A DNA stretch of 22,884 nt from a bacterium (GCA_041497675.1 JBGQGY010000052.1:1-22884); one strand, 5' to 3'; shown: positions 767-21,257, numbered from the stretch's first letter. Made by a program: numbers and translations. Notes: generated from the letters alone by a model not told the origin.

Positions 767-1693
767 ATGAAAATTGCGGTTATCGGCGGCGGGCCCGGTG
801 GGTTCTTCTTCGCGGTCTTGATGAAGCGGGCCGATCCCTCGCATGACATCACCGTCTTCGAGCGCAACGCGCCGGGAGCCACATTTGGGTTCGGCGTGGT
901 CTTCCCCGAGCGCTCGATGCAGTATCTGCGCGACGCCGACCCGCATGTACACGCCGCGTTCGTGCAAACCATGATCCACTGGGACGCGCTCGAGTACCGG
1001 CACCGGGGCCGCATCCTCCGGTGCGGCGGGCACGTCTTCTCAGGGATCGCCCGCATGGATCTCCTGCGGATCTTACAGACACAGGCAGGTCGGCTCGGTG
1101 TGAATCTATGCTTTCACCAAGAGATCGCTAGTCTCTCCAACATATCTGGATACGATCTCATCGTGGCGGCCGACGGCATCCACAGCCTGGCCCGCCGCGA
1201 ACTGGCGGACCGGTTCCGTCCCTCAACCGATGTCGGAAAAAGCGAATACATCTGGCTCGGAATTTCCCCAACCGTATCGTGGCCACCCAATCCCCGTTTG
1301 ACGGTGCCGGCCTGATCATTACCGATCCCGGTGCCCCGATCTTCCTGCAACGGTCGTTCCTCGCGGCATGTGGCTGCAGCTGCCCAACGCCGCCCAGAAG
1401 CCCCTCGACAACATTGAGCTGTCAAACACGGCGGTGCTCCTGTTGGATGGCATCGCCGCCGCCAATCTCGACCTCGTCGAATCTGCCCGCGCGGCGTGGC
1501 CGCCCGCGACCCTGAACGCGCACGCGAGGCGCACGCGCACGCGAGCGATCTGATCCGCAACCTGACGGGAGTGCCGACGATGCTGCTTGGCGGCGACTAC
1601 AACGTGGGTGACGTCAACGCGTTGATCCTGGCCGGTCGGGCCGATCTCTGCGAGTGGCCGCGTCTGGCCTGGTCGGGGTGGCGACCTCACTAA
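767..1693 (+). pseudogene. Eroded bifunctional salicylyl-CoA 5-hydroxylase / 2-aminobenzoyl-CoA monooxygenase-reductase (FAD monooxygenase + OYE domain) remnant
   Basis: 767-1261 reads MKIAVIGGGPGG...FERN...TFGFGVVF...DLIVAADGIHS...YIWLG and stops at 1315. OYE-domain relics follow in three other segments/frames: FPNRIV...GAGLIIT (1264+), RAAWPP (about 1490), and SDLIRNLTGVPTM...VNALILAGRADLC (to 1693). Confidence 0.8.
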
Positions 1694-2888
1694 AATCCGC
1701 CCGCTCCGCCGCGAGTGCCACCGCTGCGCCGGCGACCAGCGCCCAGAACGGTGCGGCGATCCGAAAGAGCACGAGCCCGGAGACGGTCACCAGAAATGCC
1801 GCGAGCGCCCCCAAGCGGAAACGCCCGCCGAACGCCTGCTGGAAGAACTGCGTCATGGGAGGCAACAGCGCCAGACCCCCGAGGACATCGACCAGCGCGC
1901 GCGGCACGATGCGCGTGATCGCCGTGGCAGCCGGCGCGAGCAGCCCGGTGGCAATCCATACGACCCCCAAGACGACACTGGCCGCGTAGCGACCCTGCGG
2001 CGGTCCCGACGCGGGCCCCGAGACGATCGCGGTGGACGGACCCGCCAGACACGCCGAGTGGCCCCCCGCCACCGCGGACACCACCGACCCGAGCCCCGCC
2101 GCCACCGTGAGCCCACTGACCGGCGGGCGATACCCGGCCGCCCAGAGCGCCGCGAACCCCTGGACGTTCTGCACGGCGATGACCATCAGCACCAGGGGGA
2201 TCACGAGTTCCACCGAGGCCGTGACCGAAAACGCGGGCACAACCACGTGAGGGCGCGCCAGCGTGAACGTCATGGCACTCCAGTCGGCCTGGCCGAGCAC
2301 GGTGACCGTCACCAGTCCCGCTACCAGCGCCGTCAGCACCGGTGGAACGCGCCGCAGACCCGGCACTGCCGACGTTGCGAAGAACGCCGCCACCGTCACG
2401 CCGCACAGCAGCGGCGCCTGCTGCAGACCCCTCGGGATTGCAAGCACGAAGGGCAACAGCACGCCCGCCACCATGCCCATCATGATCGGGATGGGCAACC
2501 GCGCGGTCGCGCGGCCGATAAGACCGGTCGCCCCCAGCAACAGCACCGCCGCGCCGGTGAGCCAGTAGGTGCCGACCACCTGATCGAAGGGCAGGTGCGC
2601 CAGGGCCGCGCCCACGAGCACAACGCCCGGGATCGTGTACGCGCCGACGATCGGCAGTCGGTAGCGCAGGCTGAGGACGATGCTCAACACGCCGCCGACG
2701 ACGCTAACCGACAGGATCCACGACACCGCCGCGGCCTCGGGAAGATTCGCCTGCCGGGCCGCCGACAACGTGATCAGCAACGGGCTGATATTCCACAAGC
2801 CGGCAACCGCGGCGCTGGCAACCCCGCCGGCAGTGAGCACGCGCGGAAGGTCGCGGAGGTTGCGAAGGAAGCCGGGATTGTGCGCCAT
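1614..2888 (-). CDS. benE: Benzoate/H+ symporter BenE family transporter
   Basis: About 424 aa, multi-TM; SWILS..LSLRYRLPIVGAYTIPG, MGMVAGVLLPF, QNVQGFAAL..AGYRPP, FLVTVSG...IAAPFWAL. ATG at 2888 overlaps the upstream TGA (GTG at 2891 is an alternative start). Confidence 0.85.
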   Translation of the reverse strand: MAHNPGFLRNLRDLPRVLTAGGVASAAVAGLWNISPLLITLSAARQANLPEAAAVSWILSVSVVGGVLSIVLSLRYRLPIVGAYTIPGVVLVGAALAHLPFDQVVGTYWLTGAAVLLLGATGLIGRATARLPIPIMMGMVAGVLLPFVLAIPRGLQQAPLLCGVTVAAFFATSAVPGLRRVPPVLTALVAGLVTVTVLGQADWSAMTFTLARPHVVVPAFSVTASVELVIPLVLMVIAVQNVQGFAALWAAGYRPPVSGLTVAAGLGSVVSAVAGGHSACLAGPSTAIVSGPASGPPQGRYAASVVLGVVWIATGLLAPAATAITRIVPRALVDVLGGLALLPPMTQFFQQAFGGRFRLGALAAFLVTVSGLVLFRIAAPFWALVAGAAVALAAERADFSEVATPTRPDAATRRDRPDRPGSTR

Positions 2889-3616
2889 CACAGGATGACG
2901 CTCGCCATGCCCAGCACGCCCACCAGTGCAAGATACGCGAGCACAACCGTGTCAAAGGCCTGTGGGGCGAGTCGTCCTCCCAGATACGAGCCGGTCACGA
3001 ATCCCAGCAAGACTCCCGGTGTCAACTTCCAGGCGAGTGCCATCGTTGAAGGTGAAACCGCGCCGCCGGCCGCCATGACTACGATGCTCGCCAAGGTGGC
3101 CAGGAAGACGAACGCCACCATGTTGGCGCGAAATCGGTCCTTTGGGCAACCGCGTGCAATCAGGTAGAGCACCACCGGCGGGCCGTTGAGACTCGTGCTT
3201 GTGGAGAGAAAGCCGCTCACCGCTCCCACAGTGACCACGTCGAGGCGCCCGGCCGACCGACGGGGACGCACACGGAACAACATCAGCGCCGCAAACAGCG
3301 TGGTCAGCCCGGCGACGAGCGCCTTCAGCGCGCGTGCGTCGGCGTGCTGCAGCAGCAGAAGTCCCCCCGGCATCCCGACCACACTGGCAAGACACATCGG
3401 ACGCATCAGCGTCCAGTCGATCGCCCGACGGAGGTCGGCGTGCAGCAACAGGGCGCCACTGGCAAGCAATCCGAGCAGGAGGGTCAGGACCACCACATCC
3501 CGCGGAGGGTACAGGAACGTCAGCAACGGGGTACTCAGCAGGTTGAATCCAAACCCGGTTGCCGCCGTCCCCATTGCAGATAACAGCACAATGAGAAGGG
3601 CGAGGTACTCTTGCAC
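2888..3616 (-). CDS. Sulfite exporter TauE/SafE (TSUP) family membrane protein
   Basis: 242 aa hydrophobic protein; TGFGFNLLSTPLL and GAVSGFL..STSLNGPPVVLYL internal repeat motifs. Confidence 0.88.
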   Translation of the reverse strand: MQEYLALLIVLLSAMGTAATGFGFNLLSTPLLTFLYPPRDVVVLTLLLGLLASGALLLHADLRRAIDWTLMRPMCLASVVGMPGGLLLLQHADARALKALVAGLTTLFAALMLFRVRPRRSAGRLDVVTVGAVSGFLSTSTSLNGPPVVLYLIARGCPKDRFRANMVAFVFLATLASIVVMAAGGAVSPSTMALAWKLTPGVLLGFVTGSYLGGRLAPQAFDTVVLAYLALVGVLGMASVIL

Positions 3617-3628
3617 TACATGATACCG

Positions 3629-4405
3629 TCAGGCCAACTTGTTGAACTGCGGCTTGCGCTTCTCGACGAAGGCTTTCACGCCCTCGTGTCCGTCGGGGCT
3701 GCGAAACAGACTCTCCAGCATCTCGCGCTCGATGCGTAGCGCGTCGTCTAGCGGGCGGTCGCGCCCCTGTTGCACCGCGAGCTTGATCGCGCCGATGGCG
3801 CTCGCCGCGCCGTCGACGAGCCCCTGTACGTAGGCGCGCGTCTGCGTCTCGAGTTGATCGGCTGGGAACAACCGGTCCAGAATGCCCATCGCGAAGGCGT
3901 CCTTCGGCGACAGGCGCCGTCCCGTCACCATCAGGTCCAGCGCGCGGTTCCACCCGATCAGTCGAGGCAGCCGCTGCGTGCCGCCGTTGCCGGGCAGCAG
4001 CCCGAGCGTCACCTCGGGCACGCCGAGATAATATTCGCCTTCGGCCCCGAAGCGAAGGTCGCAGGCGAGCGCGATCTCGAGTCCGCCCCCGAGGGCGTGC
4101 CCACGAATCTGCGCAACAAACACTTTGGGGATCCCCGCAATCCGGCCCAACGTTTGGTGCGCCAGCCGGCACATCGCCATGTTTTGATCGGCCGAGTTCT
4201 CGCTGAACGCCTTGATGTCCGCGCCCCCACAAAAGAACCGGTCGAGGGCGCTGCGCACGATCACAGCCCTGGCAGCGCCGTCGGCAGCCGCCGCATTGAT
4301 GGCCGTCTGTAACTCGTCCATGAACCCGTAATCATAACTGTTCGCAGGTGGGCGGTTGAGCGTAATGAGTCCAATCGCGTCCTCACGTGCGTACTCGACC
4401 GGCAT
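3629..4405 (-). CDS. Enoyl-CoA hydratase/isomerase (crotonase) family protein, BoxC N-domain-like; candidate ring-cleaving epoxide/oxepin-CoA hydrolase
   Basis: LNRPPANSYD, FCGGADI, GHALGGGLEIALACDLR, PEVTLGLLPGNGGTQRLPR, EGVKAFVEKRKP. Both crotonase Glu residues present. GGAGG RBS. Confidence 0.92.
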   Translation of the reverse strand: MPVEYAREDAIGLITLNRPPANSYDYGFMDELQTAINAAAADGAARAVIVRSALDRFFCGGADIKAFSENSADQNMAMCRLAHQTLGRIAGIPKVFVAQIRGHALGGGLEIALACDLRFGAEGEYYLGVPEVTLGLLPGNGGTQRLPRLIGWNRALDLMVTGRRLSPKDAFAMGILDRLFPADQLETQTRAYVQGLVDGAASAIGAIKLAVQQGRDRPLDDALRIEREMLESLFRSPDGHEGVKAFVEKRKPQFNKLA

Positions 4406-4414
4406 GGCAGCCTC

Positions 4415-5866
4415 CTACTCTAGATCTCCGACCACAACCGACTTCGGCTCCACGTAGTAGTCCATCGCCTCGGGCCCGTGCTCGCGCCCGATCCCCGACG
4501 CTTTGACGCCTCCAAAAGGCAGTTCATCATACCCGTAGTGGATCTGGTTCACCCAGGTCATCCCGGCCTCCAGATCCTGCGCGGCCTTGTAGATCCATCG
4601 GACATTGTATGTCCAAATCGACGATCCCAGACCGTAGATCGAATCGTTGGCCATCGCAATCGCGTCGTCTATCCCCTTCACCTTGAAGACCGGCAGCAGC
4701 GGGCCAAACGTCTCTTCCTTGACGGCGCGGCTGTCGTGCGGCGCCCCCTCGATCACCGTCGGGGTGAAGAAGAAGCCGCGATGGCGTCCCTCGGGCACGC
4801 GGCCGCCGTAAGCGATGCGCGCGCCGCGGCCGACGGCGTCCTGGATCTGGTCGATGATCTCCTGGCGCTGCCCCGCGGAATGGATCGGCCCCACGCGGAT
4901 CTTGGGCCGCTCGGCCTTCACCCAGCCTTCGCCAGGTTCGTACCGCGCCACGCCGGCCAGCAGTTTTTCCATGAACTTATCGTAGACGTCCTCGAACACA
5001 TATAACCGTTTACATGCGAGACATGCTTGCCCCATATTCCAGAACCGCCCAATGAGCACGCCGCGCACCGCCTTGTCCAAATCCGCATCGGAACAGACGA
5101 TGGTCGGATCGGACCCGCCCAGCTCGAGGGTGATGCGTTTGAACTGCGGGCCGGCCACCTCCATGATCCGGCGACCGGTGCCGCTTTCACCCGTGAAGGC
5201 GACACGGCGCACGTCTGGATGCGCCGCCAGCGCCTCGCCGACCACGCGGCCAGGCCCCGTGATCACGTTGAGCACGCCCGGCGGCAGACCGCCTTCATTG
5301 AGCAGGGCGATCACCCGCAGCGTCGCCAGCGGCGTGGTGCTCGCGGGTTTCACGACAACGGTGTTTCCTGCCGAGAGCGCCGGACCGATCTTCGTGCCCA
5401 TCAGCGTCAGCGGGAAGTTCCACGGGACGATTGCCGCGCACACGCCGATCGGCCGAGGGATGACCATTCCATAGGCCTTGCCCAATGAGGACGGTAGTGC
5501 AGTATACGCGCCGCGCATCTTGCTGGCCAGTTCGGTGTAAAACTCCACGCCGTGGACGAAGTGGTTGATCTCGCCCAGCGCTTCGTGCATGGGCTTGCCC
5601 TGCTCGCGCACGAGCAGATCGGCGACCTCCTGCACCGCCGCACGTACTTTCGCCAGACCCTCGCGGATCTTGTGCGCGCGCTCTTCGGCGTCGGTCTTCG
5701 CCCAACCGGGAAACGCCTTGCGCGCGGCTGCCACCGCGGCGTCGACGTCCTCGGGCCCGGCCTTTGGCACCGAATCGACCACTTCTTCGGTCGCCGGATT
5801 GATGACGGGCATCTGCGCGCCCGACTTCGCCGCGACCGCCTCGCCGTTGATCAACTGCATCGCCAT
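4415..5866 (-). CDS. NAD(P)-dependent aldehyde dehydrogenase (candidate ring-cleavage semialdehyde-CoA dehydrogenase)
   Basis: PWNFP, KPASTTP, FTGE..TG, LELGG, GQAC catalytic Cys, EETFGP, PFGGVKASGIGRE. GGAGG RBS. Confidence 0.95.
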   Translation of the reverse strand: MAMQLINGEAVAAKSGAQMPVINPATEEVVDSVPKAGPEDVDAAVAAARKAFPGWAKTDAEERAHKIREGLAKVRAAVQEVADLLVREQGKPMHEALGEINHFVHGVEFYTELASKMRGAYTALPSSLGKAYGMVIPRPIGVCAAIVPWNFPLTLMGTKIGPALSAGNTVVVKPASTTPLATLRVIALLNEGGLPPGVLNVITGPGRVVGEALAAHPDVRRVAFTGESGTGRRIMEVAGPQFKRITLELGGSDPTIVCSDADLDKAVRGVLIGRFWNMGQACLACKRLYVFEDVYDKFMEKLLAGVARYEPGEGWVKAERPKIRVGPIHSAGQRQEIIDQIQDAVGRGARIAYGGRVPEGRHRGFFFTPTVIEGAPHDSRAVKEETFGPLLPVFKVKGIDDAIAMANDSIYGLGSSIWTYNVRWIYKAAQDLEAGMTWVNQIHYGYDELPFGGVKASGIGREHGPEAMDYYVEPKSVVVGDLE

Positions 5867-5879
5867 GATGTCCCCTCCG

Positions 5880-6065
5880 CTATTTCCGTATCCGCTCGAA
5901 CGGGCTCTTGCAGGCCAGACACATATACTGTTCGGACATCAACTGCGCCCCAAAGGCCGCGATACGCTCCACGCGCGCAGACCCGCACCAGGGGCACAGG
6001 AGGACGTCTCTGTCCCCGCTTACGCGGTCGTCGCGGCGTCCAGGCGGCGTTGGAGTTGATTCCAT
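5880..6065 (-). CDS. Stand-alone PaaD C-terminal zinc-ribbon protein
   Basis: CPWCGS...FGAQLMSEQYMCLACKSPFERIRK resembles the PaaD C-terminus (CPxCxS..FG..YxCxxCxEPFxxxK). Start uncertain (ATG 6065 or GTG 6074, both within the paaC 3' end). Confidence 0.78.
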   Translation of the reverse strand: MESTPTPPGRRDDRVSGDRDVLLCPWCGSARVERIAAFGAQLMSEQYMCLACKSPFERIRK

Positions 6066-6796
6066 CGATCCCACGGCAGGTCGTCATACTCCCAGGCGCC
6101 GGCTTCTAAGTTCCACCGCACCGGGAGCCTCACGCCGACTTCCAGCAGCAGGGGCGCCACGCGCACCAGATACCGCTGTCGAAGGTCTTCATTGGCCCGG
6201 CTCAAGATGCCCTCGGCAACGAGCGCCTCGACGCCAGCTTCCCCGGGAGGCCCAAACCAACACAGCATCTCCGGCAGCACTTCATCCACACGTCGCTGGA
6301 GCGCCGAGGCCCCCTGCGGCGTGGCGACGATGCGGCGGGTCAGGCTCTCGGCATAGCCCATGTGCGAGCGCTCTTCTTCCAGCGCGCGGCGGATGCGGCT
6401 CGCCAGCGACTCGAACCGCGCGTCGGCCAGCGCGTCGAACATGGTGTTCACGGCGGTGTCGATCAGCACGCAGGCCGCCACCACGTGGGACCAGCTTGGG
6501 AAGGGCCGATCGAGAAACACGGCGCTGTAGCGGCGCTCGCGGTCGCCCTCACGCTCGAGCGGCACCGGGTGGTTGGGCCAGGGCAGCTCTTCGAGCAACG
6601 GATAAATGGCGCGCGAGTGGCCGAGTTCTTCCTGCGCGATCGCGGCGCAGGCAACCGCGGCCTCGAGAAACGGCGCGCCCGGCGCCCACTCCGAGATCCG
6701 TCGTCCCAAGAAGTATTTGGTATCGGCCAGGACCACGATGAGATTGACCAGGGGCCCGAGCGCCCGCTCGTGCATCGAGACGGTGGCCTTGCTCAC
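6020..6796 (-). CDS. paaC: Aryl-CoA epoxidase structural subunit, PaaC-like (ferritin-like PaaA/PaaC family)
   Basis: LADTKYFLGRRISEWAPGAPFLE, QEELGHSR, EEERSH, WFG. GTG start overlaps the upstream TGA. Confidence 0.82.
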   Translation of the reverse strand: MSKATVSMHERALGPLVNLIVVLADTKYFLGRRISEWAPGAPFLEAAVACAAIAQEELGHSRAIYPLLEELPWPNHPVPLEREGDRERRYSAVFLDRPFPSWSHVVAACVLIDTAVNTMFDALADARFESLASRIRRALEEERSHMGYAESLTRRIVATPQGASALQRRVDEVLPEMLCWFGPPGEAGVEALVAEGILSRANEDLRQRYLVRVAPLLLEVGVRLPVRWNLEAGAWEYDDLPWDRWNQLQRRLDAATTA

Positions 6797-7005
6797 GGCT
6801 GCGGCTCGATGACCCAGTGGACCGACCCCGCCGGCGCCAGCACCATCTCCAGCCAGTCGCCGCCGAATCGCTGCGTGGCCAGCGCGGCCGGCTCCTCGCC
6901 CGAGCCAACCGCGATGATGCCCTGATAGGCCAACGATTCGGTGTAGGCCCGGCGGGCGAGCACCAGAAACCGGCGCGAACGTGGGTCCACGGCGGCGGGT
7001 CCCAT
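6793..7005 (-). CDS. Second PaaB-like small protein (70 aa)
   Basis: ATG at 7005 overlaps the upstream TGA. FLVLARRAYTESLAYQGII...WLEMVLAP...WVIEP aligns by eye with the adjacent PaaB-like YEVFAARAEGAEPVKNVGAV...WKEMFVIP...HVIRP. Confidence 0.65.
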   Translation of the reverse strand: MGPAAVDPRSRRFLVLARRAYTESLAYQGIIAVGSGEEPAALATQRFGGDWLEMVLAPAGSVHWVIEPQP

Positions 7006-7202
7006 CAGGCGGGCCGGATGACGTGGATCAGCGCGCTGCGGGGGATGACAAACATCTCTTTCCAGCGCCACTCATCGTAGAGTTTGTGCGCGAAGATCGC
7101 CGCCTCGCGCGAACTGCGGGCGCGGACCGCGCCCACGTTCTTGACCGGCTCCGCCCCTTCGGCCCGCGCCGCAAACACCTCATAGATCTCTTCGCCCTGC
7201 AC
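7005..7202 (-). CDS. paaB: PaaB-like small subunit of aryl-CoA epoxidase (65 aa)
   Basis: YEVF...VGAVRA...A...Y...FVIP pattern of PaaB. GTG start directly abuts the paaD TAA. Confidence 0.75.
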   Translation of the reverse strand: MQGEEIYEVFAARAEGAEPVKNVGAVRARSSREAAIFAHKLYDEWRWKEMFVIPRSALIHVIRPA

Positions 7203-7514
7203 TTAGACCACCCCGACCCCGCGTAGCTGTTTCCATCCCTCTGCGCTGATGTGCTCGCGAGTCCAGGGTTCCCACACGATCTCGATCACGACCCGCTCGA
7301 CGCCCGGCAGAGCGCGCAGACGCTCGCGGATGTCGTCCTGGATCATCTCCATGCACGGACAGCCCATCGACGTGTACGTCATGCGCACGCGTACTGTCGA
7401 GCCCTTAACCTCGACCCCGCGGATAAGTCCCAGATCAACGATGTTCACTGGATACTCGGGGTCGAGGATCTCATGCAGCGCTGCGTGGATGACGGCCTCG
7501 TCCAGGTCAGACAT
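7203..7514 (-). CDS. paaD: PaaD N-terminal domain / DUF59 (metal-sulfur cluster assembly factor)
   Basis: Start ATG at 7514 overlaps the paaA stop. LHEILDPEYPVNIVDLGLI, TYTSMGCPC, WEPWT motifs; 103 aa, lacks the zinc ribbon. Confidence 0.85.
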   Translation of the reverse strand: MSDLDEAVIHAALHEILDPEYPVNIVDLGLIRGVEVKGSTVRVRMTYTSMGCPCMEMIQDDIRERLRALPGVERVVIEIVWEPWTREHISAEGWKQLRGVGVV

Positions 7515-10266: not shown

Positions 10267-10273
10267 CAGGGAC

Positions 10274-11711: not shown

Positions 11712-12088
11712 TTGTACCGGCCCAGTTTCTCCAGGGCGGAGAGCACGAACCGATCGTCCACCACCAGGCTCAGGTTCACTTTTCGGGGGACGAACCCGTT
11801 CTTCTCGTACCAGTCCTGGTCGAAGCGCAGGCTTTGGCGATTGACGGCGCCGTTGGGATCGAGCCAGGGCATGATCATCTTGTTCGCCATCGCCGCCGGC
11901 ATGTCGGGGAACGCCATGGTCACGACTTCGACGTCGTCCAGCGTGAGGTTGCCGCGGGCGGCCAGCGCGATCTTCAACCCTTTGAGATCGGCCCGGGTCT
12001 TGAACCGGCCGCTGTCCACCAGGTCGCGGCGGATGACCAGCCCCTCATAACTGTAGCCGGTTCGAATCGGATCTTGTCCAATGGCCAT
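11708..12088 (-). pseudogene. Internally deleted NitT/TauT (NMT1/SsuA-like) ABC substrate-binding protein remnant, 126 aa open frame
   Basis: GYSYEGLVIRRDLVDSGRFKTRADLKGLKIA, LTLDDVEVVTMAFPDMPAAMANK and PWLDPNGAVNRQSLRFDQDWY...VVDDRFV..ALEKLGRYK are non-contiguous blocks of a roughly 330-aa SBP family. No signal peptide. GAGG RBS; stop overlaps livG ATG. Confidence 0.7.
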
Positions 12089-12114: not shown

Positions 12115-13329
12115 CTAGCGCTGTTCCCACGCCGGCGCCGGAAACTGGAACGGCGCGGTCGCGAACTCTTTGGGCCAGACCAGCTCCTGCTTGCCTCGTT
12201 GCCACTGGAGGAACACGACCGTGACCACGCCGGTGCCATCTGCCCGGAAGCGTACCTGGCCTTCCACAGTCATCATGTTGGTCGCGGCCATCGCGTCGCG
12301 GATCTTCGCGCGGTCCAGCGTACCGGCGCGCGCGATCGCGTCGGCCAGGATCTGGACGGCGGCGTACGAGGGCCCGGTGAGCACATCACCGGGGCGTCCA
12401 AACGCACGCTGGTGCTTGTCATTCAGTTCTTTCACGCCGGGGAACCGCATGGCGTTGTGCCAGCCGGGCGCCAGCATGACGTAGTCGCCGTCCTTGCCCA
12501 GGTTCTGGCTCCACACCACGGCGTCGGCCGCGCGGATGAGCATGTACATCTTGGCGTTGAACGCCAACTGCTTCATCTGGCGGACTAGGTTCAACCCGTC
12601 CGGCGGCGTGGGGACACCGAACACGGCCTCGGCACCGGCGGCTTTGGCGCGCAGGATGTTGTCCGAGAAGTCGCGCGCGCCGATCGCGTACTCTTCAATG
12701 GCGACGGCGCTATAGCCGAACTCCTTCGCGCGCGTCGCCCACAGCCCGCCAATTTCCTCGCCCCAGTCGGTCCGTTCCTTGAAGATGGCGATCCGCTTCG
12801 GCCGCTGCGCATCGGGGAGCGTCCCGTTCAAGAATAGGTAGGTTTCCTTGACAAGGTCGGGGGATTTCGGGAATGGGCTGAATAGATATTTGAAGCCCTG
12901 CTGGTGGATCTTGTGTAGGGCGAACGCCACGCCGAGGTAGGGGACCTTGTTCTTCTCGGCGATTGACGCGGCCGCGGCGTGCAGGTCGCTGCCAAACCCA
13001 CCCAGATAGGCTGTGACCCGATCGCTCGCGAACAGCGTCTCGAGCCTGGCCACGGTCTTAATGGGGTCGGACTCGTCATCCAGCAGGACCAGTGCCAGCG
13101 GCAGCTTCTTATTGAACTCCGGCACCATCACGCCGCCGGCGCGGTTGATGTCCTCGATCGCAAACTCGTAGCCGGCCTTCACCTGCGCGCCGCCCGCCGC
13201 GTAGCGTCCGGTCAGGGGCACCACTGCGCCCACCTTGATGCTCAAGGGCGCCTGCGCCACGCTCGGACTCGCGCCCAGTGTCATCCATGCCAGCACGGCG
13301 ACGATCACCAGCGCGATCACTGTCTTCAT
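12115..13329 (-). CDS. LivK-type (PBP1) ABC substrate-binding protein, probably for an aromatic acid
   Basis: Signal peptide MKTVIALVIVAVLAWMTLGASPSVAQA; IKVGAVVPLTGRYA, INRAGG, DDESDP, QWQRGKQELVWP. Confidence 0.9.
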   Translation of the reverse strand: MKTVIALVIVAVLAWMTLGASPSVAQAPLSIKVGAVVPLTGRYAAGGAQVKAGYEFAIEDINRAGGVMVPEFNKKLPLALVLLDDESDPIKTVARLETLFASDRVTAYLGGFGSDLHAAAASIAEKNKVPYLGVAFALHKIHQQGFKYLFSPFPKSPDLVKETYLFLNGTLPDAQRPKRIAIFKERTDWGEEIGGLWATRAKEFGYSAVAIEEYAIGARDFSDNILRAKAAGAEAVFGVPTPPDGLNLVRQMKQLAFNAKMYMLIRAADAVVWSQNLGKDGDYVMLAPGWHNAMRFPGVKELNDKHQRAFGRPGDVLTGPSYAAVQILADAIARAGTLDRAKIRDAMAATNMMTVEGQVRFRADGTGVVTVVFLQWQRGKQELVWPKEFATAPFQFPAPAWEQR

Positions 13330-13341
13330 CTGGTTTCCCCC

Positions 13342-13488
13342 CTAGTCGATCCTGGACTCGTCGCGATACATCACGCGTGCGCGTTCGTTTCTGATCCACT
13401 CATCGATCTGTTCGTCGGTCGGCCCATTGGCCGGAGTGAACCGGCTGACCCACCACACGCTGTAGCCGAGCGCCGCCGCGGGTGGCAT
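13342..13488 (-). CDS. Small hypothetical protein (48 aa)
   Basis: Manual translation MPPAAALGYSVWWVSRFTPANGPTDEQIDEWIRNERARVMYRDESRID*. ATG overlaps the ligase TGA and TAG abuts the livK RBS. Below the ORF-track size cutoff. Confidence 0.5.
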   Translation of the reverse strand: MPPAAALGYSVWWVSRFTPANGPTDEQIDEWIRNERARVMYRDESRID

Positions 13489-14831
13489 CACTGCGTCCCC
13501 TCCGCGTGCACCACGCGCCTGGCCTTCAATTCGAAACGCGGCAGCGTGCCGGCCGCGACCGCGGCCGTCTCGACCCGTAGTCCGACCGTATGGCGGACAT
13601 CGTCGCTGACCGCCGCCACCGTCCGGTCGCGCATCTCGCGGCCGTGCGTCGCCTCGTCGATTTCCAGCACGATCCGGATCTCGTGCATCTCGTGCCGCCT
13701 GGTCACCTCGATGCGGAACTCATCCACGGTCGGGTGGCGCCGCACGACGTCTTCGATGACGCTCGGAAACACGTTGACCCCGCGCACGATGAGCATGTCG
13801 TCGGCTCGGCCGAGGATACCGCCTTCGGCGCGCACGAACGTGCGGCCGCAGGCGCACGGCGAGGGGTTGAGACGCACCAGGTCGCCGGTCCGGTAGCGGA
13901 TCGCGGGTGACCCCCAGCGTCCCAGGTTCGTGACAACGAGCTCACCTTGCCCATCCCGAGCGGGCCTGCCGGTGGCGGGATCGATGACGTCGATGATAAA
14001 CTCGCTCTCGTTGAAGTGCAGACCGCCCGGCTGCACGATACACTCGAACCCCAGGGCGCCCACCTCGGTCATCCCACAGTGGTCGAAGCACTTCGCGCCC
14101 CAGGATTCCTCGATGCGGCGCTTCGTCCCTGGGATGTTTGCGCCCGGTTCTCCCGCGTGGATCGTGACCCGGATCGACGTAGTCGCAGGATCGATCCCCT
14201 GCTCTCTCGCGACCTGCGCCAAGCGCAGCGCGTAGGATGGCGTGCAGACCAGCACGGTGGTGCTGGCTTCGATGAGGGTTCGGAGCCGCAGGACCGAATC
14301 CTGGCCCCCGCCGGGGACGGTGAGTGCGCCAAGCCGCGTGGCGGCGTCGAATCCCGCCCAGAAGCCAATAAACGGGCCAAACGAGAAGGGAAAGAGGATC
14401 CGGTCTTCGGGGACGACCCCCGCCGCCCGGTACACGAACTCCCAACAGCGGGTCCACCAGTCCCATGAGTCGGGCGTATCCAACCAGCGCAGCGGCCGGC
14501 CGGTGGTCCCGGAGGTCATGTGATAACGATTATAACGTTCGACAGGATAGGTCAGGATGGTGCCAAACGGCGGGTGGGCCTGCTGATCGTCGACCAATTC
14601 CTGTTTCGTCGTCAAGGGGAGCCGGCGAAAGTCGTCCAGCGTTCGAATGGACGTCACGTCGCCGGCTCCGGCGGCCGCCCACTTACGCCGGTAGAAGACG
14701 TTATGCGCAGCGACTTCCGCCAACACGGCCCGGAGGCGCTCGACCTGCAGCCCGTCAAGCGCCGCGCGGTCGACCGTCTCCAGTTCGCGGTCAAAGAACG
14801 GGACCTCGGGGGGCGCGGCGCGGGCGCTCAT
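13488..14831 (-). CDS. paaK: Phenylacetate-CoA ligase (PaaK) family aryl-CoA ligase
   Basis: TSGTTGRP, CTPSYAL, AGEPG, GMTE, RYRTGD, GRADDMLIVRGVNVFPS, LPRFELKARR. Start 14831 (GAGG upstream) preferred over 14873. Confidence 0.88.
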   Translation of the reverse strand: MSARAAPPEVPFFDRELETVDRAALDGLQVERLRAVLAEVAAHNVFYRRKWAAAGAGDVTSIRTLDDFRRLPLTTKQELVDDQQAHPPFGTILTYPVERYNRYHMTSGTTGRPLRWLDTPDSWDWWTRCWEFVYRAAGVVPEDRILFPFSFGPFIGFWAGFDAATRLGALTVPGGGQDSVLRLRTLIEASTTVLVCTPSYALRLAQVAREQGIDPATTSIRVTIHAGEPGANIPGTKRRIEESWGAKCFDHCGMTEVGALGFECIVQPGGLHFNESEFIIDVIDPATGRPARDGQGELVVTNLGRWGSPAIRYRTGDLVRLNPSPCACGRTFVRAEGGILGRADDMLIVRGVNVFPSVIEDVVRRHPTVDEFRIEVTRRHEMHEIRIVLEIDEATHGREMRDRTVAAVSDDVRHTVGLRVETAAVAAGTLPRFELKARRVVHAEGTQ

Positions 14832-14844
14832 CCGGCGGATATCC

Positions 14845-15858
14845 TCATATGTGGGACGGAGGTTCTTCCGCATGGATGCCGGCGAGTTCCTTCAATGCCC
14901 GGCCGACGTACACGCGGACCATCTGTTTGCGGTAGCGCAGCGTGAGGTCGGTATTGTCGAGGGGTTTGGCCGGCTTGAAGGCCGCGTCGGCGGCCGCGTC
15001 GATCACCCCGGCGTCGAGCCTCTGCCCAATCAGCGCCTGCTCCGCGGCGCGCGCCCGCAGCGGCATCGACGCGACGGCGCCCAGGATCAGCCGCGCGTCG
15101 GCCACTGTTCCGCCGGCGTCGAGCCGCACCGCCGCGGCCACGCCGAGAATCGGAAAGTCGATGCTGCCGCGGCGCCGAAGTTTCCAGTATGTCGCCCGCC
15201 ACCCGTCGGCCGGCGGCACCTGGATGTCCACCAGGATCTCGTCGGGTCGTTTGCCGAGATAGGCGATCCCGTCATCCCGATATAGCTCGGCCGCGGTGAT
15301 GACGCGCTCGCCGGCCGCGCTCACCAAACGCACCTTCGCGTCGAGAGCGATGACGACCGGCGCCAGGTCCGAGGACGAGATGGCCCAGCACTTCGAGCCG
15401 CCCGGCGCCACCCAGCACACGTCGCCGTCCTTCTTCATGCAGAAGCTGATCGACTTCCGCCACCAGTACGGCATGTTGTAATAGTTGCAGCGCGTGTCGA
15501 CCAGCAGGTTGCCGCCGACCGTGCCCATGTGGCGGATCTGGGGATTTGAGATCAACTCCGCGGCGCGTCCGAGCACCGGGTACCACGCGGCCGCCAATGG
15601 GTGCGCGGTCAGGTGCCGCAGCACCGTCCCCGCACCGATCGTCAACCCGTCGCGCTCGTTGCCCCGGACACCCTGCAGTTCGCGCAACCCGCGCAGCCCC
15701 ACCAACACCTTTGGCTCGAACTGCCGGCGCTTCATGTTGGGGTAGAGGTCGGTCCCACCGGCGACGGCCATCGCACTGGGGCCGTGATCCGCCAGCATCC
15801 GCGCGGCCTCGTCGAGCGCGCGAGGCGCCAGATACGTGAACGCCGGCAAACGCATCAT
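14845..15858 (-). CDS. hcrB: 4-hydroxybenzoyl-CoA reductase beta-type FAD subunit with [4Fe-4S] insertion
   Basis: AGGTDL, QIRHMGTVGGNL, four-Cys insertion DTRCNYYN..WWR...FCMKKDGDVCWVAPGGSKC, KLRRRGSIDFP. Confidence 0.85.
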   Translation of the reverse strand: MMRLPAFTYLAPRALDEAARMLADHGPSAMAVAGGTDLYPNMKRRQFEPKVLVGLRGLRELQGVRGNERDGLTIGAGTVLRHLTAHPLAAAWYPVLGRAAELISNPQIRHMGTVGGNLLVDTRCNYYNMPYWWRKSISFCMKKDGDVCWVAPGGSKCWAISSSDLAPVVIALDAKVRLVSAAGERVITAAELYRDDGIAYLGKRPDEILVDIQVPPADGWRATYWKLRRRGSIDFPILGVAAAVRLDAGGTVADARLILGAVASMPLRARAAEQALIGQRLDAGVIDAAADAAFKPAKPLDNTDLTLRYRKQMVRVYVGRALKELAGIHAEEPPSHI

Positions 15859-18239
15859 CAGACCGTCACCTTGTGCCAGCCGGGCGGAAGCTCGACGCGG
15901 ATCGGGTCTTTGAACCGGATCGACGGCACCCGAGTGGGTCCGACCCGGCCGCTCCCGCCTTTGCGCACGTCGGCCAGCGCGGCCAGGATCTTGTCGGGCG
16001 TGATGGGGATCTCGTCGATCGCGATGCCCAGGGCGTCGCGCACGGCGTTGGCGACCGCCGGGATCACGGGCAGCAGCGGCCCTTGACCGACTTCCTTAGC
16101 GCCGAAGGGTCCCTCCGGATCGACCGACTCCACGATGAACGAGTGGATCTCCGGCATCTCCAACGTGGTCGGGCTCTTGTACTCCAGCATCGACGGAAAC
16201 TTGTGCACGCCGCGCCGGAAGACTTGCTCTTCCATTAAGACCTCTCCAAGACCCATGTACACGCTGCCCTCGATCTGTCCTTCGACGAGCAGCGGGTTGA
16301 TGGCACGGCCGACGTCGTGCGCGATCCAGACCTTCTCCACCTTCACCTCGCCGCTTTCCGGGTCGCACCGCACCTCGGCGACGCAGGCGGTGTAGGAGTA
16401 AGCAGGTGACGGTCCGACCCCCGACCCCTTGTACGGCCCCGATAGTTTCGGCGGGCGATAGCTGCCCGTCGTCGCCAGCAGGCCAACGCGCGCCTCGGCC
16501 GCGCGGACCGCCTCAGGCCAGGTGAGCCCGCGGTCGGGTGTCTCCTTCACGTAGATGCGGCGACCTTCCGCCACGAGGAGGTCCGGTGGGACCTCGAGTC
16601 TTTCCGCCACCGCCTTGAAGATGATCTCCCGCATTTTGGTGGCGGCTTCGAGCGCCGCGTTCCCGGCCATGAAGGTGACGCGGCTGGAATACGACCCGAG
16701 ATCGATAGGCGTGAGATCGGTGTCGGCCGTCACGAGCTTGATGTCGGACGGCTGGATCCCAAGCACCTCCGCGACGGTGTAGGCCAGCACCGAATCCGAG
16801 CCCTGACCGATATCGATCGCCATCGAGTACACTGTGACCCCGCCGCCACGGTCGATCTTGATCTGGACCTCTGATTGCGGCATGTCGTTCCAGTAGATCG
16901 GCAGCCCCGCGCCACACATGTACGCGCCGACCGCGACGCCGACCCCGCGCCCGCGGGGCAACCGGCCGCGCTTTTGGTGAAAACCCGAGGCGTCCACCAC
17001 GCGGTCGAGACACTCGCGCAACCCGCACGACGTGATGCGCAGGTAGTTGACCGTCATCGAGTTTGGCTCGACCAGGTTGCGGAGCCGCAGCGTCACGGGA
17101 TCGATGCCCAAATCCGCGGCAGCCTTGTCGAGCTGGCATTCCATGGCGTAACGCGGCTGCGGCGTGCCGTGGCCGCGTTTTGGCCCGCACGGCGGCTTGT
17201 TGGTGAAAACGCGGAGCCCCTCGAACTTGTAACGGGGGATCTTGTACGTCGTCGTCTGCAGCGCTCCAGTGTAGTAGGTGCTCGCAACCCCGTACGAACC
17301 GTACGCCCCGCCGTCCAAAAACGTCTTGAAGTGCATCGCGGTGATGCGGCCTTGGTGGCTAAACCCCGTCTTGACCCACATCAGCGTCGGGTGCCGGCCG
17401 CGGTGGATGTAAAACACTTCTTCCCGGGTGCACGTGATCTTGACGGGCCGCCCGGTGATCATCGAGAGTTTGGCCGCGGCGATCTCGTGCGAGAATGGAT
17501 CGGTCTTCCCGCCAAACCCGCCGCCGACCGGCGTCGCGATGACGCGGATCTGGCTGGCCGGGCGCTCCAGGACCTTCTCGAGCGCGCGGTGGACGTAGTG
17601 CGGCGTCTGTGTCGAGGTCCAGACGGTCAGCTTGCCGTCGGGCTCGTAGGAGGCCACGGCCGAGTGTTGCTCCATGGGGAGATGGGTGTTGCCTTCGAAA
17701 AAGAAGATGTCTTCGCGGACATGATCAGCCTCGCGAAACCCCTCCTCGACGTCGCCAAACTCCAGCGCCACCATCTTGTGGATGTTGGGCCCGTCGCCGT
17801 AGTCCTGGATGCGGACGTCCTCGCGTTTCAGCGCTTCGTCGATCGACATGATGGCGGGCAGCGGCTCGTACACGACGTCGATGAGCTCCAGCGCGCGATC
17901 GGCGGTCTCTTCGTCGATCGCTGCCACCGCCGCCACCGGATCGCCGACGTAGCGCACTTTGTGGATGGCCAGCGTCTCTTCATCCTGGCTGACGGGGAGG
18001 ATGCCAAACTTGATCGGGAGCGCCGTGCCGGTCAAGACCGCTACGACCCCGGGCAGCGCTTCCGCTCGGCTGGTATCGATCGATGTGATCAGGGCGTGCG
18101 CGTGGGTGCTGCGCAACAGCCGACCGTGCAGCATCCTCGGCAAATTGAGATCGTCCGCAAACTTTGTTTGCCCCGTGCACTTGCCCATCCCGTCGACGCG
18201 GGGCAGCGGTTTGCCGATGACCGAGAAGGTCCCGTGCAT
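15858..18239 (-). CDS. hcrA: 4-hydroxybenzoyl-CoA reductase alpha-type molybdopterin subunit (xanthine oxidase family)
   Basis: 793 aa; TQTPH, GGGFGGK, RGRHP, GGAYGSYG, PPCGPKRGHG, DIGQGS, GSYSSRVTFM, GPFGAKE. Confidence 0.85.
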   Translation of the reverse strand: MHGTFSVIGKPLPRVDGMGKCTGQTKFADDLNLPRMLHGRLLRSTHAHALITSIDTSRAEALPGVVAVLTGTALPIKFGILPVSQDEETLAIHKVRYVGDPVAAVAAIDEETADRALELIDVVYEPLPAIMSIDEALKREDVRIQDYGDGPNIHKMVALEFGDVEEGFREADHVREDIFFFEGNTHLPMEQHSAVASYEPDGKLTVWTSTQTPHYVHRALEKVLERPASQIRVIATPVGGGFGGKTDPFSHEIAAAKLSMITGRPVKITCTREEVFYIHRGRHPTLMWVKTGFSHQGRITAMHFKTFLDGGAYGSYGVASTYYTGALQTTTYKIPRYKFEGLRVFTNKPPCGPKRGHGTPQPRYAMECQLDKAAADLGIDPVTLRLRNLVEPNSMTVNYLRITSCGLRECLDRVVDASGFHQKRGRLPRGRGVGVAVGAYMCGAGLPIYWNDMPQSEVQIKIDRGGGVTVYSMAIDIGQGSDSVLAYTVAEVLGIQPSDIKLVTADTDLTPIDLGSYSSRVTFMAGNAALEAATKMREIIFKAVAERLEVPPDLLVAEGRRIYVKETPDRGLTWPEAVRAAEARVGLLATTGSYRPPKLSGPYKGSGVGPSPAYSYTACVAEVRCDPESGEVKVEKVWIAHDVGRAINPLLVEGQIEGSVYMGLGEVLMEEQVFRRGVHKFPSMLEYKSPTTLEMPEIHSFIVESVDPEGPFGAKEVGQGPLLPVIPAVANAVRDALGIAIDEIPITPDKILAALADVRKGGSGRVGPTRVPSIRFKDPIRVELPPGWHKVTV

Positions 18240-18240
18240 G

Positions 18241-18741
18241 CTAGCGCCCCCCGCCCGGCGTCCCGTTGCCGTTGCGCGCGCGGGCGGCCGCCAGTTCGAC
18301 GGCCTCGAAGATCTTCACGTATCCGGTGCACCGGCAGAGATTGCCCGCCAGCGCCTGCGCGATCCGCTCCCGCGTGGGATCGGGCTCCGCGTCGAGCAGC
18401 GCCTTGGCCGCCAGGAGAATCCCCGGCGTGCAATACCCGCACTGCGCCGCGCCAAGCTCGGTGAAGGTCATCTGTAGGTGGTGCGGCCGGCTCCCCTCCG
18501 CCAAACCTTCGACCGTCGTGATCTCGCGATTCTGCACCTCGACCGGCAGCGTCAGACACGAGAGCCACGGCTCGCCATCGATCAGCACCGTGCATGTGCC
18601 GCACTCGCCGAGCTCGCAGCCATGTTTGGTCCCGGTGAGGTTCATCTCTTCGCGCAAGACTTCGAGCAGCGTCTTGTGGATGGGCGCCGCAACTTCGTGG
18701 GTCTCCCCGTTCACGCGCAGCGTGAGCAGCGTCTTGGGCAT
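18241..18741 (-). CDS. hcrC: 2x[2Fe-2S] small subunit (HcrC/CoxS type)
   Basis: GTKHGCELGECGTCTV..SCL, QCGYCTPG, NLCRCTGY. ATG at 18741 overlaps the iclR TAA. Confidence 0.9.
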   Translation of the reverse strand: MPKTLLTLRVNGETHEVAAPIHKTLLEVLREEMNLTGTKHGCELGECGTCTVLIDGEPWLSCLTLPVEVQNREITTVEGLAEGSRPHHLQMTFTELGAAQCGYCTPGILLAAKALLDAEPDPTRERIAQALAGNLCRCTGYVKIFEAVELAAARARNGNGTPGGGR

Positions 18742-19580
18742 TAGACGCCGCCCGCCGCGGCCGCTTTGTCTCTCGCCCCGGCCCATGCCGCTCCGGTGCC
18801 GCCCAACCGCCGCGAGATATCTTGCGCCGCCTGCTTCACGGCCAACCCCGCGGCCTGGAGACGCGTCTCCGTAAGCCGCGCGCCGTACCCGACGATGGTC
18901 ACGGTGGCCGAGGGTCGTCCCCGCCCATCGAGCACGGGCGATGATGCGGCGCGGACACCGGGTAAATACTCTTCGCGATCGGCAGCGTACCCGAGCGTCC
19001 GGACCCGCGTCAATTCCTTGCGATAGCGACGTGGATCGGTGATCGACCTGGGCGTGAACGCCGGCAGCGTCCGGCCGCTCAACAGGCGGGTCACCTCGTC
19101 GTCAGGCAGCCAGGCCAGGAACGCCTTCGCCACGGCGCCCGCAAACGGCGGCAGCCGGTGCCCGATCGGCGCCGTCACCTTCAACTGGTGATCGGACTCC
19201 ACGCGGTCGACGATCACCGCGCCCTGATCGTTCGGGACGTGCAGCACCGCTGTCTCGCCAATGGCATCCCGAAGTCGCACGAGAAACGGCCGCGCGACCT
19301 GCCGCAGATCGAGGCCCCGCAGCACGGCGTTGCCCAGATCGAGCAGCGCGTAGCCCAAGCGGTAGACCCGCGACTCGTCGTCGCGTTCGACAAACCCGTA
19401 GTGCTCGAGGGTGCTGAGGAGTTCGGAGAGCGTGCTCTTGCTGACGCCGAGCGCGCGGCTGAGGTCAGACAGGCGGCGCGGCCCACCGTCCGCGCTCAGG
19501 GCCTGGAGGACGAGGACGGTCCGTTCGATGGCAGGCACGAGGCGCCGGGACCGCGTGGCAGAATCCTCCATGTTCGCCAT
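18741..19580 (-). CDS. IclR family transcriptional regulator
   Basis: N-terminal wHTH (LSDLSRALGVSKSTLSELLSTLEHYGFV..YRLG), GETAVL, GAVAKAFLA, LPAFTPRSITD, GYAADREEY. Start 19580 or 19571. Confidence 0.95.
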   Translation of the reverse strand: MANMEDSATRSRRLVPAIERTVLVLQALSADGGPRRLSDLSRALGVSKSTLSELLSTLEHYGFVERDDESRVYRLGYALLDLGNAVLRGLDLRQVARPFLVRLRDAIGETAVLHVPNDQGAVIVDRVESDHQLKVTAPIGHRLPPFAGAVAKAFLAWLPDDEVTRLLSGRTLPAFTPRSITDPRRYRKELTRVRTLGYAADREEYLPGVRAASSPVLDGRGRPSATVTIVGYGARLTETRLQAAGLAVKQAAQDISRRLGGTGAAWAGARDKAAAAGGV

Positions 19581-19607
19581 TTCGAACAGTGTTCGGTATG
19601 TAGGACA
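19571..19607. promoter_or_regulatory. Tandem IclR-type operators: TGTTCG-N6-CGAACA (19571-19588) and TGTTCG-N6-AGGACA (19590-19607)
   Basis: One perfect and one imperfect inverted repeat between the -10 box and the iclR start; GTTCG half-sites resemble PcaR/PobR-type boxes. Confidence 0.7.
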
Positions 19608-19636
19608 AACCTACCTGCCTGATCTTACCGTGTCAA
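19608..19636 (-). promoter_or_regulatory. Sigma70-type promoter for the catabolic cluster: TTGACA-N17-TAGGTT
   Basis: Minus-strand TTGACA at 19636-19631, 17-bp spacer, TAGGTT at 19613-19608. Confidence 0.78.
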
Positions 19637-21226: not shown

Positions 21227-21257
21227 CCCTCCAAAATCCCTCTCATGGGAGGCACCT

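Follow-up and report, generated by a model that had tools for sequence, protein, structure and literature searches.

A candidate operon for degradation of a para-substituted benzoate that pairs an Hcr-like molybdenum enzyme with a Paa-like oxygenase

Hcr is a marker of anaerobic aromatic metabolism, while Paa-type epoxidases depend on O2, which raises the question of why a bacterium would keep both in one run of genes. This arrangement occurs in a 22,884-nucleotide stretch of bacterial DNA (GCA_041497675.1 JBGQGY010000052.1:1-22884; hereafter, the window), where 20 intact minus-strand genes follow one another in the order iclR, hcrC, hcrA, hcrB, a PaaK-fold ligase gene, livKGFHM, paaA-like, paaD (DUF59), two small B-type genes, paaC-like, a PaaD zinc-ribbon gene, an aldehyde dehydrogenase (ALDH) gene, a crotonase gene, tauE, and benE (Table 1). 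A sequence-only reading of the window had proposed a hybrid pathway, in which Hcr yields benzoyl-coenzyme A (benzoyl-CoA) for epoxidation and Box-like ring cleavage. Our analysis on balance favors an IclR-controlled operon that degrades a para-substituted benzoate through two separable modules. Module 1, the HcrCAB-like enzyme with its PaaK-fold ligase, quite probably makes benzoyl-CoA; module 2, the PaaA/B/B'/C/D-like oxygenase with the crotonase and ALDH, is likely to act on that product. If so, an enzyme of anaerobic type here feeds an oxygenase.

The window is the whole of contig C52 of a 3.97-Mb genome (272 contigs; 98.6% complete, 3.6% contamination) from what is described as a soil or sediment bacterium. 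Close relatives of the PaaA-like protein with the same gene order come from Ca. Fervidifonticultor, Ca. Tepidifontimicrobium, and Ca. Sysuimicrobiota, which suggests that the host belongs to the Sysuimicrobiota (CSP1-3). Above cutoff, the host genome encodes COX1 and a 2-oxoacid:acceptor oxidoreductase. Members of this phylum are likely facultative anaerobes (PMC11604079), and the available text of that paper contains neither "benzo" nor "phenyl."

Gene content, order, strand, and coordinates stood on re-examination as the sequence-only reading had given them, and none of bcr, paaG, paaZ, boxAB, or a dioxygenase was the best family for any of the 26 open reading frames (ORFs) scanned in the window; family scans likewise found no PaaE or PaaK there. 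Its tally of about 22 co-oriented ORFs is reached if two small scar ORFs are added to the 20 intact genes, and its upper limit of 67 bp for the gaps applies only when these scars count as genes: the intact-gene gaps between ligase and livK (158 bp) and between livK and livG (403 bp) each contain the scar of a gene that is intact in relatives. Most junctions within the operon overlap or span fewer than 15 bases, and transcription from iclR to benE as a single message seems probable. Misassembly was rejected because the same order recurs in several other genomes. That reading had overlooked two features: the small zinc-ribbon gene at 5880-6065, and Gln719 of the HcrA-like protein, which aligns with Glu726 of PDB 1rm6.

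Chains A and B of 1rm6 are the best structure matches of the molybdenum enzyme (E 1e-193 for the HcrA-like protein against 1rm6_A), and the four [4Fe-4S] cysteines of the HcrB-like subunit align with those of 1rm6_B; such a four-cysteine insertion is not unique to Hcr. Gln at the position of Glu726 recurs throughout the clade, in 44 of 44 locus matches (a redundant set from about 31 genomes) and in all 70 of the 78 metagenome loci that cover the column. Glu occupies it in all 13 other xanthine dehydrogenase-type matches of the host; among 150 representatives, Glu is found in 122 and Gln in seven. We take Glu726 to be the catalytic acid/base of 1rm6; our literature search found no paper naming both the enzyme and "Glu726." The Gln-for-Glu clade could give studies of molybdenum enzyme mechanism a new test. 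In a FastTree phylogeny (78 of 94 near-full-length locus sequences after removal of near-duplicates, plus 23 representatives), the Gln proteins of these loci were monophyletic (support 1.00) and nested among Hcr-like representatives, in a tree that holds no named characterized Hcr. A relative with 54% identity in Pyrinomonas methylaliphatogenes has Glu at this position and scores above the TIGR03194 cutoff (1034 bits against 995), and strain K22 of this species has both the above-cutoff HcrA and the epoxidase discussed below. A plasmid search returned no HcrA above 60%, the best matches being 39%.

These data also bear on the direction of the molybdenum enzyme. It might act oxidatively, for example from phenylacetyl-CoA to phenylglyoxylate or from an aryl aldehyde to the acid, with benzoyl-CoA then formed by a 2-oxoacid dehydrogenase and the Box-like half unchanged; this would suit a partner ligase of PaaK fold, the pyruvate dehydrogenase E1 (PDH-E1)-like genes that follow hcrB in family f4, and the 2-oxoacid:ferredoxin oxidoreductase genes near hcr in many metagenome loci. 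These oxidoreductases could, however, equally supply reduced ferredoxin, and the operon encodes no 2-oxoacid dehydrogenase. The closest characterized enzyme is the reductase 1rm6, whose [4Fe-4S] insertion is retained, the sister protein of Pyrinomonas passes the Hcr model, and Gln at the general-base position presumably fits hydroxylation poorly. We consider oxidation very unlikely and regard reduction as the working direction. The PDH-E1-like genes of family f4 (G059 C42, G062 C50, G077 C34) may be other benzoyl-CoA feeders, as may the PDH-E1-like and hydantoinase/caprolactamase-like genes that flank the epoxidase in some Thermoleophilia (L042, L045, L046).

The PaaK-fold ligase belongs to the Hcr module: of the 23 loci with a homologue at 48% or more, 21 have hcr as well, and the remaining two end inside the ligase. 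Its scores to phenylacetate and 2-hydroxyisobutyrate ligases are similar. Phenylphosphate-carboxylase-like UbiD genes stand beside hcr in G091 and L146, and UbiX stands with a phosphoenolpyruvate synthase-like gene in G332; these neighbors point to 4-hydroxybenzoate as the Hcr-linked substrate. In G091 (C2:40000-60000; L125), four consecutive UbiD-family genes precede hcrCAB, which is followed by BcrC-/BcrB-like genes below cutoff, with the epoxidase module about 24 kb downstream. In Desulfatiglans anilini, aniline and 4-aminobenzoate induce Hcr-like proteins (PMC7500099), so an amino leaving group is also possible.

The PaaA-like oxygenase is not canonical PaaA. It falls short of TIGR02156, and the PaaC-like subunit falls short of TIGR02158 (Table 1), whereas the host encodes canonical PaaA (389 bits) and PaaC (228 bits) above cutoff on contig C96. 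Elsewhere the host has PaaK-, PaaF-, PaaG-, PaaH-, and thiolase-like genes, all below cutoffs; the PaaK copy on contig C7, for instance, scores 579 (TIGR02155 cutoff 646). A predicted model of the PaaA-like protein (predicted local distance difference test score 93.7) superposes on Escherichia coli PaaA with a template modeling (TM) score of 0.83 and on BoxB with 0.60. We examined its context in the best 80 of 139 confirmed loci (PaaA-like identity 62-95%), which come from the host phylum, Pyrinomonas, Chloroflexota, Rubrobacter, Gaiellales, and Thermoleophilia. The six diiron ligands E43, E73, H76, D127, E157, and H160 (ligand list of PaaA from section 3.2 of PMC4498308) are invariant in all 80, and in all 80 Ile69 and Tyr50 stand in place of the lysine bridge (Lys68, Glu49); the canonical PaaA of the host keeps the bridge. 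It is also missing from more remote PaaA-like clades (about 50% and 37%), seen on haloarchaeal plasmids (L135, L136), on an Agrobacterium plasmid (L137), and in L138, which have their own ligases, crotonases, UbiD genes, or hydrolases; L138 has Gln at one iron-ligand position.

Such divergence could mark a second pathway for phenylacetate or a substituted phenylacetate, where the crotonase and ALDH would take over from PaaG and PaaZ. The Paa-type fold and subunit set fit this idea, as do the PaaA label that databases give the protein, the best scores of the in-operon ligase with PaaK models, and PaaY-like genes in 34 of the 80 loci. The failed PaaA and PaaC models and the canonical set elsewhere in the host argue otherwise. 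A homologue of host PaaK was found in none of the 80 loci, against a homologue (at least 40% identity) of the host benzoate-CoA-family ligase in 32 of them, including 24 of the 40 loci of at least 17 kb. PaaG-like genes at 40% or more occur in six of the 80, and the crotonase falls short of both the PaaG model (131 bits, cutoff 345) and the model for the alternative oxepin hydrolase (126 bits, cutoff 300). A divergent phenylacetate route is thus, in our estimation, highly improbable.

Instead, the clade resembles a substitute for the Box pathway built on a Paa scaffold, because it travels with benzoate-CoA ligases, ALDH, and crotonase across phyla. The representative of the 32 benzoate-type ligases passes TIGR02262 (603 bits, cutoff 375), and Thermus thermophilus plasmid pHB5018c carries the same module (PaaA 74% identical) with crotonases, two ALDHs, an annotated benzoate-CoA ligase, and a thiolase. 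In the host, contig C105 joins the right end of the window through a unique exact overlap of 141 bases, the usual overlap length in this assembly, and brings a co-oriented ligase that passes TIGR02262 (595 bits), about 13 kb ahead of iclR on its upstream side. The four-contig genome G001 has the equivalent genes contiguously: second ALDH, benzoate ligase, CoA-transferase pair, MaoC, iclR, hcrCAB, ligase, liv, paa-like, ALDH, crotonase, and benE. The pathway case is therefore stronger than the sequence-only reading could know, because of this ligase on the adjoining contig and the separate paa set of the host. C105:1-4821 (L220) encodes a second ALDH, the benzoate-CoA-family ligase, and a two-subunit CoA-transferase-like pair; its first 400 bases also match the end of contig C73 at 98%, possibly a strain variant.

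For ring opening, the crotonase is the proposed enzyme. Its best PDB match is 2ppy at 216 bits, by a wide margin over the next at 178. An orthologue is present in 42 of the 80 epoxidase loci, usually beside ALDH, and both catalytic Glu residues are found in all 42; BoxC and PaaF also carry both (section 4 of PMC4498308). The motif NSY[DE], shared with BoxC, occurs in 39 of the 42, and NSY occurs in none of the 27 other crotonases of these loci, though an Oah-like protein of L169 also has it. The motif together with the Glu pair hints at BoxC-like ring opening. The ALDH is generic by family scan.

An alternative reading is that the oxygenase attacks substituted benzoyl-CoA directly or yields a re-aromatized hydroxybenzoyl-CoA, with the molybdenum enzyme as a parallel branch instead of a feeder. 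TIGR02262, which the benzoate-type ligases pass, is a subfamily that we take to cover substituted benzoates, and haloarchaeal relatives of the oxygenase at about 50% adjoin UbiD decarboxylases. CoA-dependent hydroxylation of this kind exists, as described for PhgABC (PMC11848710), in which PhgA is a 4-hydroxybenzoyl-CoA 1-hydroxylase. Nevertheless, the operon encodes no thioesterase, the host genome has no gentisate dioxygenase or LigB match, and a crotonase orthologue in 42 of 80 loci, usually beside ALDH, fits opening of a CoA-bound ring. Direct attack is unlikely in our view, and a feeder role for the molybdenum enzyme is preferred.

If Hcr feeds the oxygenase, the two halves should share genomes, and they do so in two phyla. 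Among 94 host-phylum genomes, the HcrA clade (E 1e-150 or better) is present in 36 and the PaaA-like clade (at least 59%) in 35: 30 have both, six hcr only, five the epoxidase only, and 53 neither. These counts include one unpublished genome, G024, for which the depositors' permission is needed; a second, G017, is only among the 53. By genus (31 in all), 12 have both, of 15 with hcr and 13 with the epoxidase. The halves share a contig in 15 of the 30 genomes (within 14 kb in 13 and within 24 kb in two) and lie on different contigs in 15. In a set of 301 genomes that share the class of an Anaerolineales record, the HcrA clade occurs in 10, the PaaA-like clade in seven, and both in six; without two genomes reached through paaA (n = 299), both occur in four, of eight and five (4/4/1/290 for both, hcr only, epoxidase only, and neither), with at most three HcrA candidates scored per genome in this class. 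The Anaerolineae-class genome G286 has iclR-hcrC-hcrA-hcrB-ligase-paaA-D-B-C-zinc ribbon co-oriented, and G098, from the same class, repeats this order over two contigs that overlap by 250 bases (99.6%) within the ligase. The order is reversed in L203 (ALDH-crotonase-paa-hcrCAB), and in L017 the halves are convergent. These arrangements fall on different branches of the HcrA tree, whose deep nodes are weak.

Co-occurrence might instead reflect mere proximity in an aromatic-catabolism island, where Hcr serves, or once served, an anaerobic Bcr route uncoupled from the epoxidase in vivo. PF06050 (BcrBC-type) matches occur in 25 of the 94 genomes, including 16 of the 30 with both halves; families f5 and f6 place hcr 7-9 kb from such genes, gene order varies readily, and fresh deletion scars mark the window. 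Organisms with both bcr and box routes are known (PMC4453571, PMC9765128). Across the metagenomes, the company that the Hcr clade keeps favors a benzoyl-CoA product: BcrB-/BcrC-like genes stand near it in 12 of the 78 loci (Had and Oah representatives above cutoff, Dch and Bcr below). Parts of the paa-like module lie near it in nine (L142, L144, L145, L146, L158, L164, L174, L180, L203), and many of the other loci show none of the query genes. Against simple proximity, 14 of the 30 genomes, the host included, have intact hcr without a PF06050 match, though several of the 14 are incomplete, and tight co-oriented hcr-ligase-paaA or paa-hcr runs recur on separate branches of the HcrA tree. In the host phylum, 35 of 36 hcr genomes have this epoxidase or a BcrBC-like gene, the exception being 83% complete. 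The host genome itself, at 98.6% completeness, yielded no match to boxB (TIGR03225), PF06050, LigB, or gentisate dioxygenase, BamB (class II reductase) not being part of the search, and its PobA matches reach at most 35 bits against a cutoff of 539. The checks on co-location and on bcr and boxB that the sequence-only reading had proposed came out in its favor, and we think it distinctly unlikely that the halves are mere neighbors. One metagenome locus (L176:9500-21600) has Gln-type hcrCAB together with true boxB, boxC, a benzoate-CoA ligase, and BcrBC-like genes.

Several findings weigh against the coupled pathway. All three Hcr subunits score under their curated cutoffs (Table 1), Hcr still being the best family for each, and Gln719 replaces a conserved Glu. 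The in-operon ligase has a PaaK fold. By sequence, the crotonase (258 residues) is not a BoxC member because it is single-domain and its 32% identity (over 174 residues) to the N-domain of L176 BoxC is no closer than its 36% to host PaaF; a cysteine common to the crotonase and BoxC was dropped as a diagnostic, since only six of the 42 orthologues keep it. The figure of 32 benzoate-type ligases is a raw homology count, of which the representative was scanned with hidden Markov models. Two weak intradiol-dioxygenase-domain (PF00775) matches occur in the host (C18:15574-15963, C89:15275-15517). The BcrBC-like genes in 16 of the 30 genomes count here as well, and genome counts drawn from kin overstate independence, as do the Fisher values, because kin genomes are not independent. 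Family f4 has oppositely oriented genes between the halves, and a single operon is therefore not universal. Most epoxidase loci lack nearby hcr (hcrB in six of 80), and the halves are therefore separable modules; for the same reason we rejected Hcr as a general answer to the missing electron donor of the epoxidase, neither PaaE nor a BoxA reductase being encoded within the operon. Finally, benzoyl-CoA inhibits characterized PaaABCE instead of serving as its substrate, and phenylacetyl-CoA is no substrate for BoxB (PMC4498308, section 4). The clade must therefore have altered specificity, which the altered pocket residues of the PaaA-like protein allow without proving. The hybrid pathway of the sequence-only reading is thus supported in part, strengthened by co-conservation, the adjoining ligase, and the separate canonical paa set, and limited by the Hcr scores and Gln, the crotonase, the separable modules, and the frequent BcrBC-like genes.

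Our proposed route would begin with import of an aromatic acid by Liv and BenE, after which the PaaK-fold ligase would convert the substituted benzoate to its CoA ester; plain benzoate would enter through the TIGR02262 ligase on the adjoining contig. The molybdenum enzyme, probably with electrons from ferredoxin, would reductively remove the para substituent, most likely 4-OH and possibly 4-NH2, to give benzoyl-CoA. The diiron oxygenase would then epoxidize benzoyl-CoA with O2, the crotonase would open the ring hydrolytically, and the ALDH would oxidize the semialdehyde to a C6 dicarboxyl-CoA, a Box-like sequence on a Paa-type multi-subunit scaffold, with beta-oxidation to follow by genes elsewhere. 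A bolder proposal, which we advance tentatively and hold at somewhat under an even chance, is that these loci represent a third CoA-epoxide aromatic route. A Paa-scaffold benzoyl-CoA epoxidase would replace BoxB in Thermus, Rubrobacter, Thermoleophilia, Chloroflexota, Acidobacteriota, and the host phylum, joined in several lineages by a captured, mechanistically distinct Gln-type molybdenum reductase from an anaerobic pathway; reductive removal of OH, NH2, or halide would then be obligatory before O2-dependent ring opening.

Counterparts of both halves are known, as are organisms that combine anaerobic and epoxide routes (see above). The pairing of an anaerobe-type reductase with an O2-using ring enzyme recurs in two phyla and may be an undescribed route of aromatic breakdown: our search, with most subscription papers and supplements outside its reach, found no description of a benzoate-ligase-linked PaaA clade, a Gln-type Hcr, or an Hcr and epoxidase operon. 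The term "paa" is absent from the available text of PMC10803450. If the proposal is correct, thousands of PaaA-labeled proteins (4280 clusters at E 1e-40 or better, perhaps including neighboring clades) mark degradation of benzoate, not phenylacetate, and surveys that rely on boxB overlook aerobic benzoate degraders of the CoA-dependent type within groups that are abundant in soil and hot springs. Zaar et al. reportedly described an aerobic benzoate route in Bacillus stearothermophilus in 2001, for which this clade could possibly supply candidate genes. The epoxidase half is testable in cultured Thermus thermophilus HB5018.

The operon is headed by a conserved promoter and a putative operator. 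The tandem palindromes overlapping the iclR start are likely the IclR operator; an ATG lies directly 3' of the operator in several iclR relatives. Similar promoter and palindrome elements precede most of the iclR orthologues listed and that of G286, and the tandem form is seen in relatives of families f1, f4, and f6 and in G286. The single promoter/operator of the sequence-only reading therefore stands by comparison with relatives, although a generic consensus scan of the window (five sites, against 1.8 +/- 1.3 in shuffles) places none upstream of iclR; terminator-like sites are at chance level (nine, against 9.4 +/- 3.2 expected).

Both scars within the operon correspond to genes that relatives retain. 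For the scar between ligase and livK, the intact gene of L006 scores best with BluB/nitroreductase models; for the second, the intact SsuA-type binding gene of relatives resembles TIGR01728. L002, L005, and L006 keep the whole cassette, with genes for an ATP-binding cassette (ABC) ATPase, a permease, MetE-like, amidohydrolase-like, and binding proteins, and in L001 the SsuA-type piece is cleanly gone. A cobalamin-independent methionine-synthase-like (MetE catalytic domain) gene has been inserted repeatedly in the operon (G001, G002, L002, L003). Outside the operon, a plus-strand N-terminal piece (767-1315; 182 residues) of a salicylyl-CoA 5-hydroxylase-like protein faces the operon end; a 725-residue copy is encoded on host contig C215 (902 bits, cutoff 1078), and L001 has a similar piece. 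A class I/II aminotransferase gene (1-702, minus strand) is interrupted by the contig end, and genes for a PMT_2 glycosyltransferase, a DUF2330 protein, and a cupredoxin occupy 19674-22648 on the plus strand. Of the aminotransferase, glycosyltransferase, DUF2330, and cupredoxin genes, none recurs with the epoxidase, except the aminotransferase in L001.

Table 1. Features of the operon, in window coordinates; scores are in bits, and locus fractions refer to the 80 epoxidase loci
Feature	Coordinates	Strand	Basis
Sigma70-type promoter (TTGACA 19636-19631, 17 bp, TAGGTT 19613-19608)	19608..19636	-	Sequence; similar -35/-10 spacing in relatives
Tandem imperfect palindromes (GTTC-N8-GAAC type; 19590-19607, 19571-19588)	19571..19607		Putative IclR operator
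IclR-family regulator, start probably ATG at 19571	18741..19580	-	PF01614, PF09339
HcrC-like 2x[2Fe-2S] subunit	18241..18741	-	Best family TIGR03193, 181, cutoff 258
HcrA-like molybdopterin subunit, Gln719 vs Glu726 of 1rm6	15858..18239	-	TIGR03194 889, cutoff 995, next family 534
HcrB-like FAD subunit, four-cysteine [4Fe-4S] insertion	14845..15858	-	TIGR03195 274, cutoff 405
PaaK-fold CoA ligase, start probably 14831	13488..14873	-	TIGR02155 243, cutoff 646
Scar (48 codons), C-terminal piece of nitroreductase-like gene	13342..13488	-	Matches gene end at same position in L005, L006, L142
Liv-type ABC substrate-binding protein (livK)	12115..13329	-	PF13458
Scar, two fused pieces of SsuA-type binding protein from deleted cassette	11708..12076	-	Two separate matches to intact gene in L002, L005, L006
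livG (livGFHM block 8510..11711)	10983-11711	-	
livF	10274-10990	-	
livH	9403-10266	-	
livM	8510-9406	-	
PaaA-like diiron catalytic subunit, distinct clade	7507..8442	-	PF05138; TIGR02156 106, cutoff 280
PaaD N-terminal (DUF59/SufT) protein	7203..7514	-	PF01883; 78/80 loci
PaaB-like protein 1	7005..7202	-	Atlas feature match to PaaB-like clusters 0.92-0.94; no Pfam or NCBIfam match; 75/80 loci
Second small subunit, putative PaaB paralogue	6793..7005	-	Matched at same position in 44/80 loci; no Pfam or NCBIfam match
PaaC-like structural subunit	6020..6796	-	PF05138; TIGR02158 80, cutoff 133; 73/80 loci
Separate PaaD zinc-ribbon gene	5880..6065	-	PF23451 48, cutoff 27; 68/80 loci
Aldehyde dehydrogenase, proposed semialdehyde oxidation	4415..5866	-	PF00171; below every NCBIfam cutoff shown
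Single-domain crotonase, two Glu and NSYD, proposed ring opening	3629..4405	-	Best PDB match 2ppy, E 4e-63
TauE/SafE-family membrane protein, accessory	2888..3616	-	PF01925; 2/80 loci only
BenE-family benzoate transporter	1614..2891	-	PF03594 238; TIGR00843 191, cutoff 203; 9/80 loci

Among known systems, HcrCAB of Thauera aromatica (1rm6; TIGR03193-5) is the closest to module 1: it is the best PDB match for A and B and the best NCBIfam match for all three subunits, and the HcrB [4Fe-4S] cysteines are shared. The enzyme described here differs in scoring below all three cutoffs, in Gln719 for Glu726, in its PaaK-fold ligase, and in the O2-dependent module that follows, with no BcrBC-type gene found in the host. 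PhgABC of Brevibacillus laterosporus (NIH shift) is alike in its CoA-level, O2-dependent attack on a para-substituted benzoate (PMC11848710), whereas that route ends in gentisate through a thioesterase and involves no reductase step.

PaaABC(D)E (PDB 3pw1, 4iit) shares with module 2 the fold (TM 0.83), the six iron ligands, the equivalent of Phe108, and the A/B/C/D set. In contrast, the oxygenase of the window is 25% identical in structural alignment, has lost the lysine bridge, and comes with two B-type genes, a split PaaD, and no PaaE, in an operon without PaaG and PaaZ and in the company of benzoate-type ligases instead of PaaK. The crotonase has its best PDB match in the structural-genomics entry 2ppy, presumably Geobacillus kaustophilus GK1992, with which it shares NSYD and the cysteine; the PDB name gives no substrate. 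The Box pathway, which releases formate, uses a BoxB for which the host has no match, a two-domain BoxC (TIGR03222), and BoxA; the window instead offers a Paa-type multi-subunit oxygenase (TM 0.60 to BoxB), a single-domain crotonase, no BoxA, and an ALDH that matches no PaaZ/BoxD-type model among those shown. What the two have in common is the proposed epoxide, crotonase, and ALDH chemistry, a benzoate-CoA ligase nearby, and the NSYD motif and two Glu residues of the active BoxC domain.

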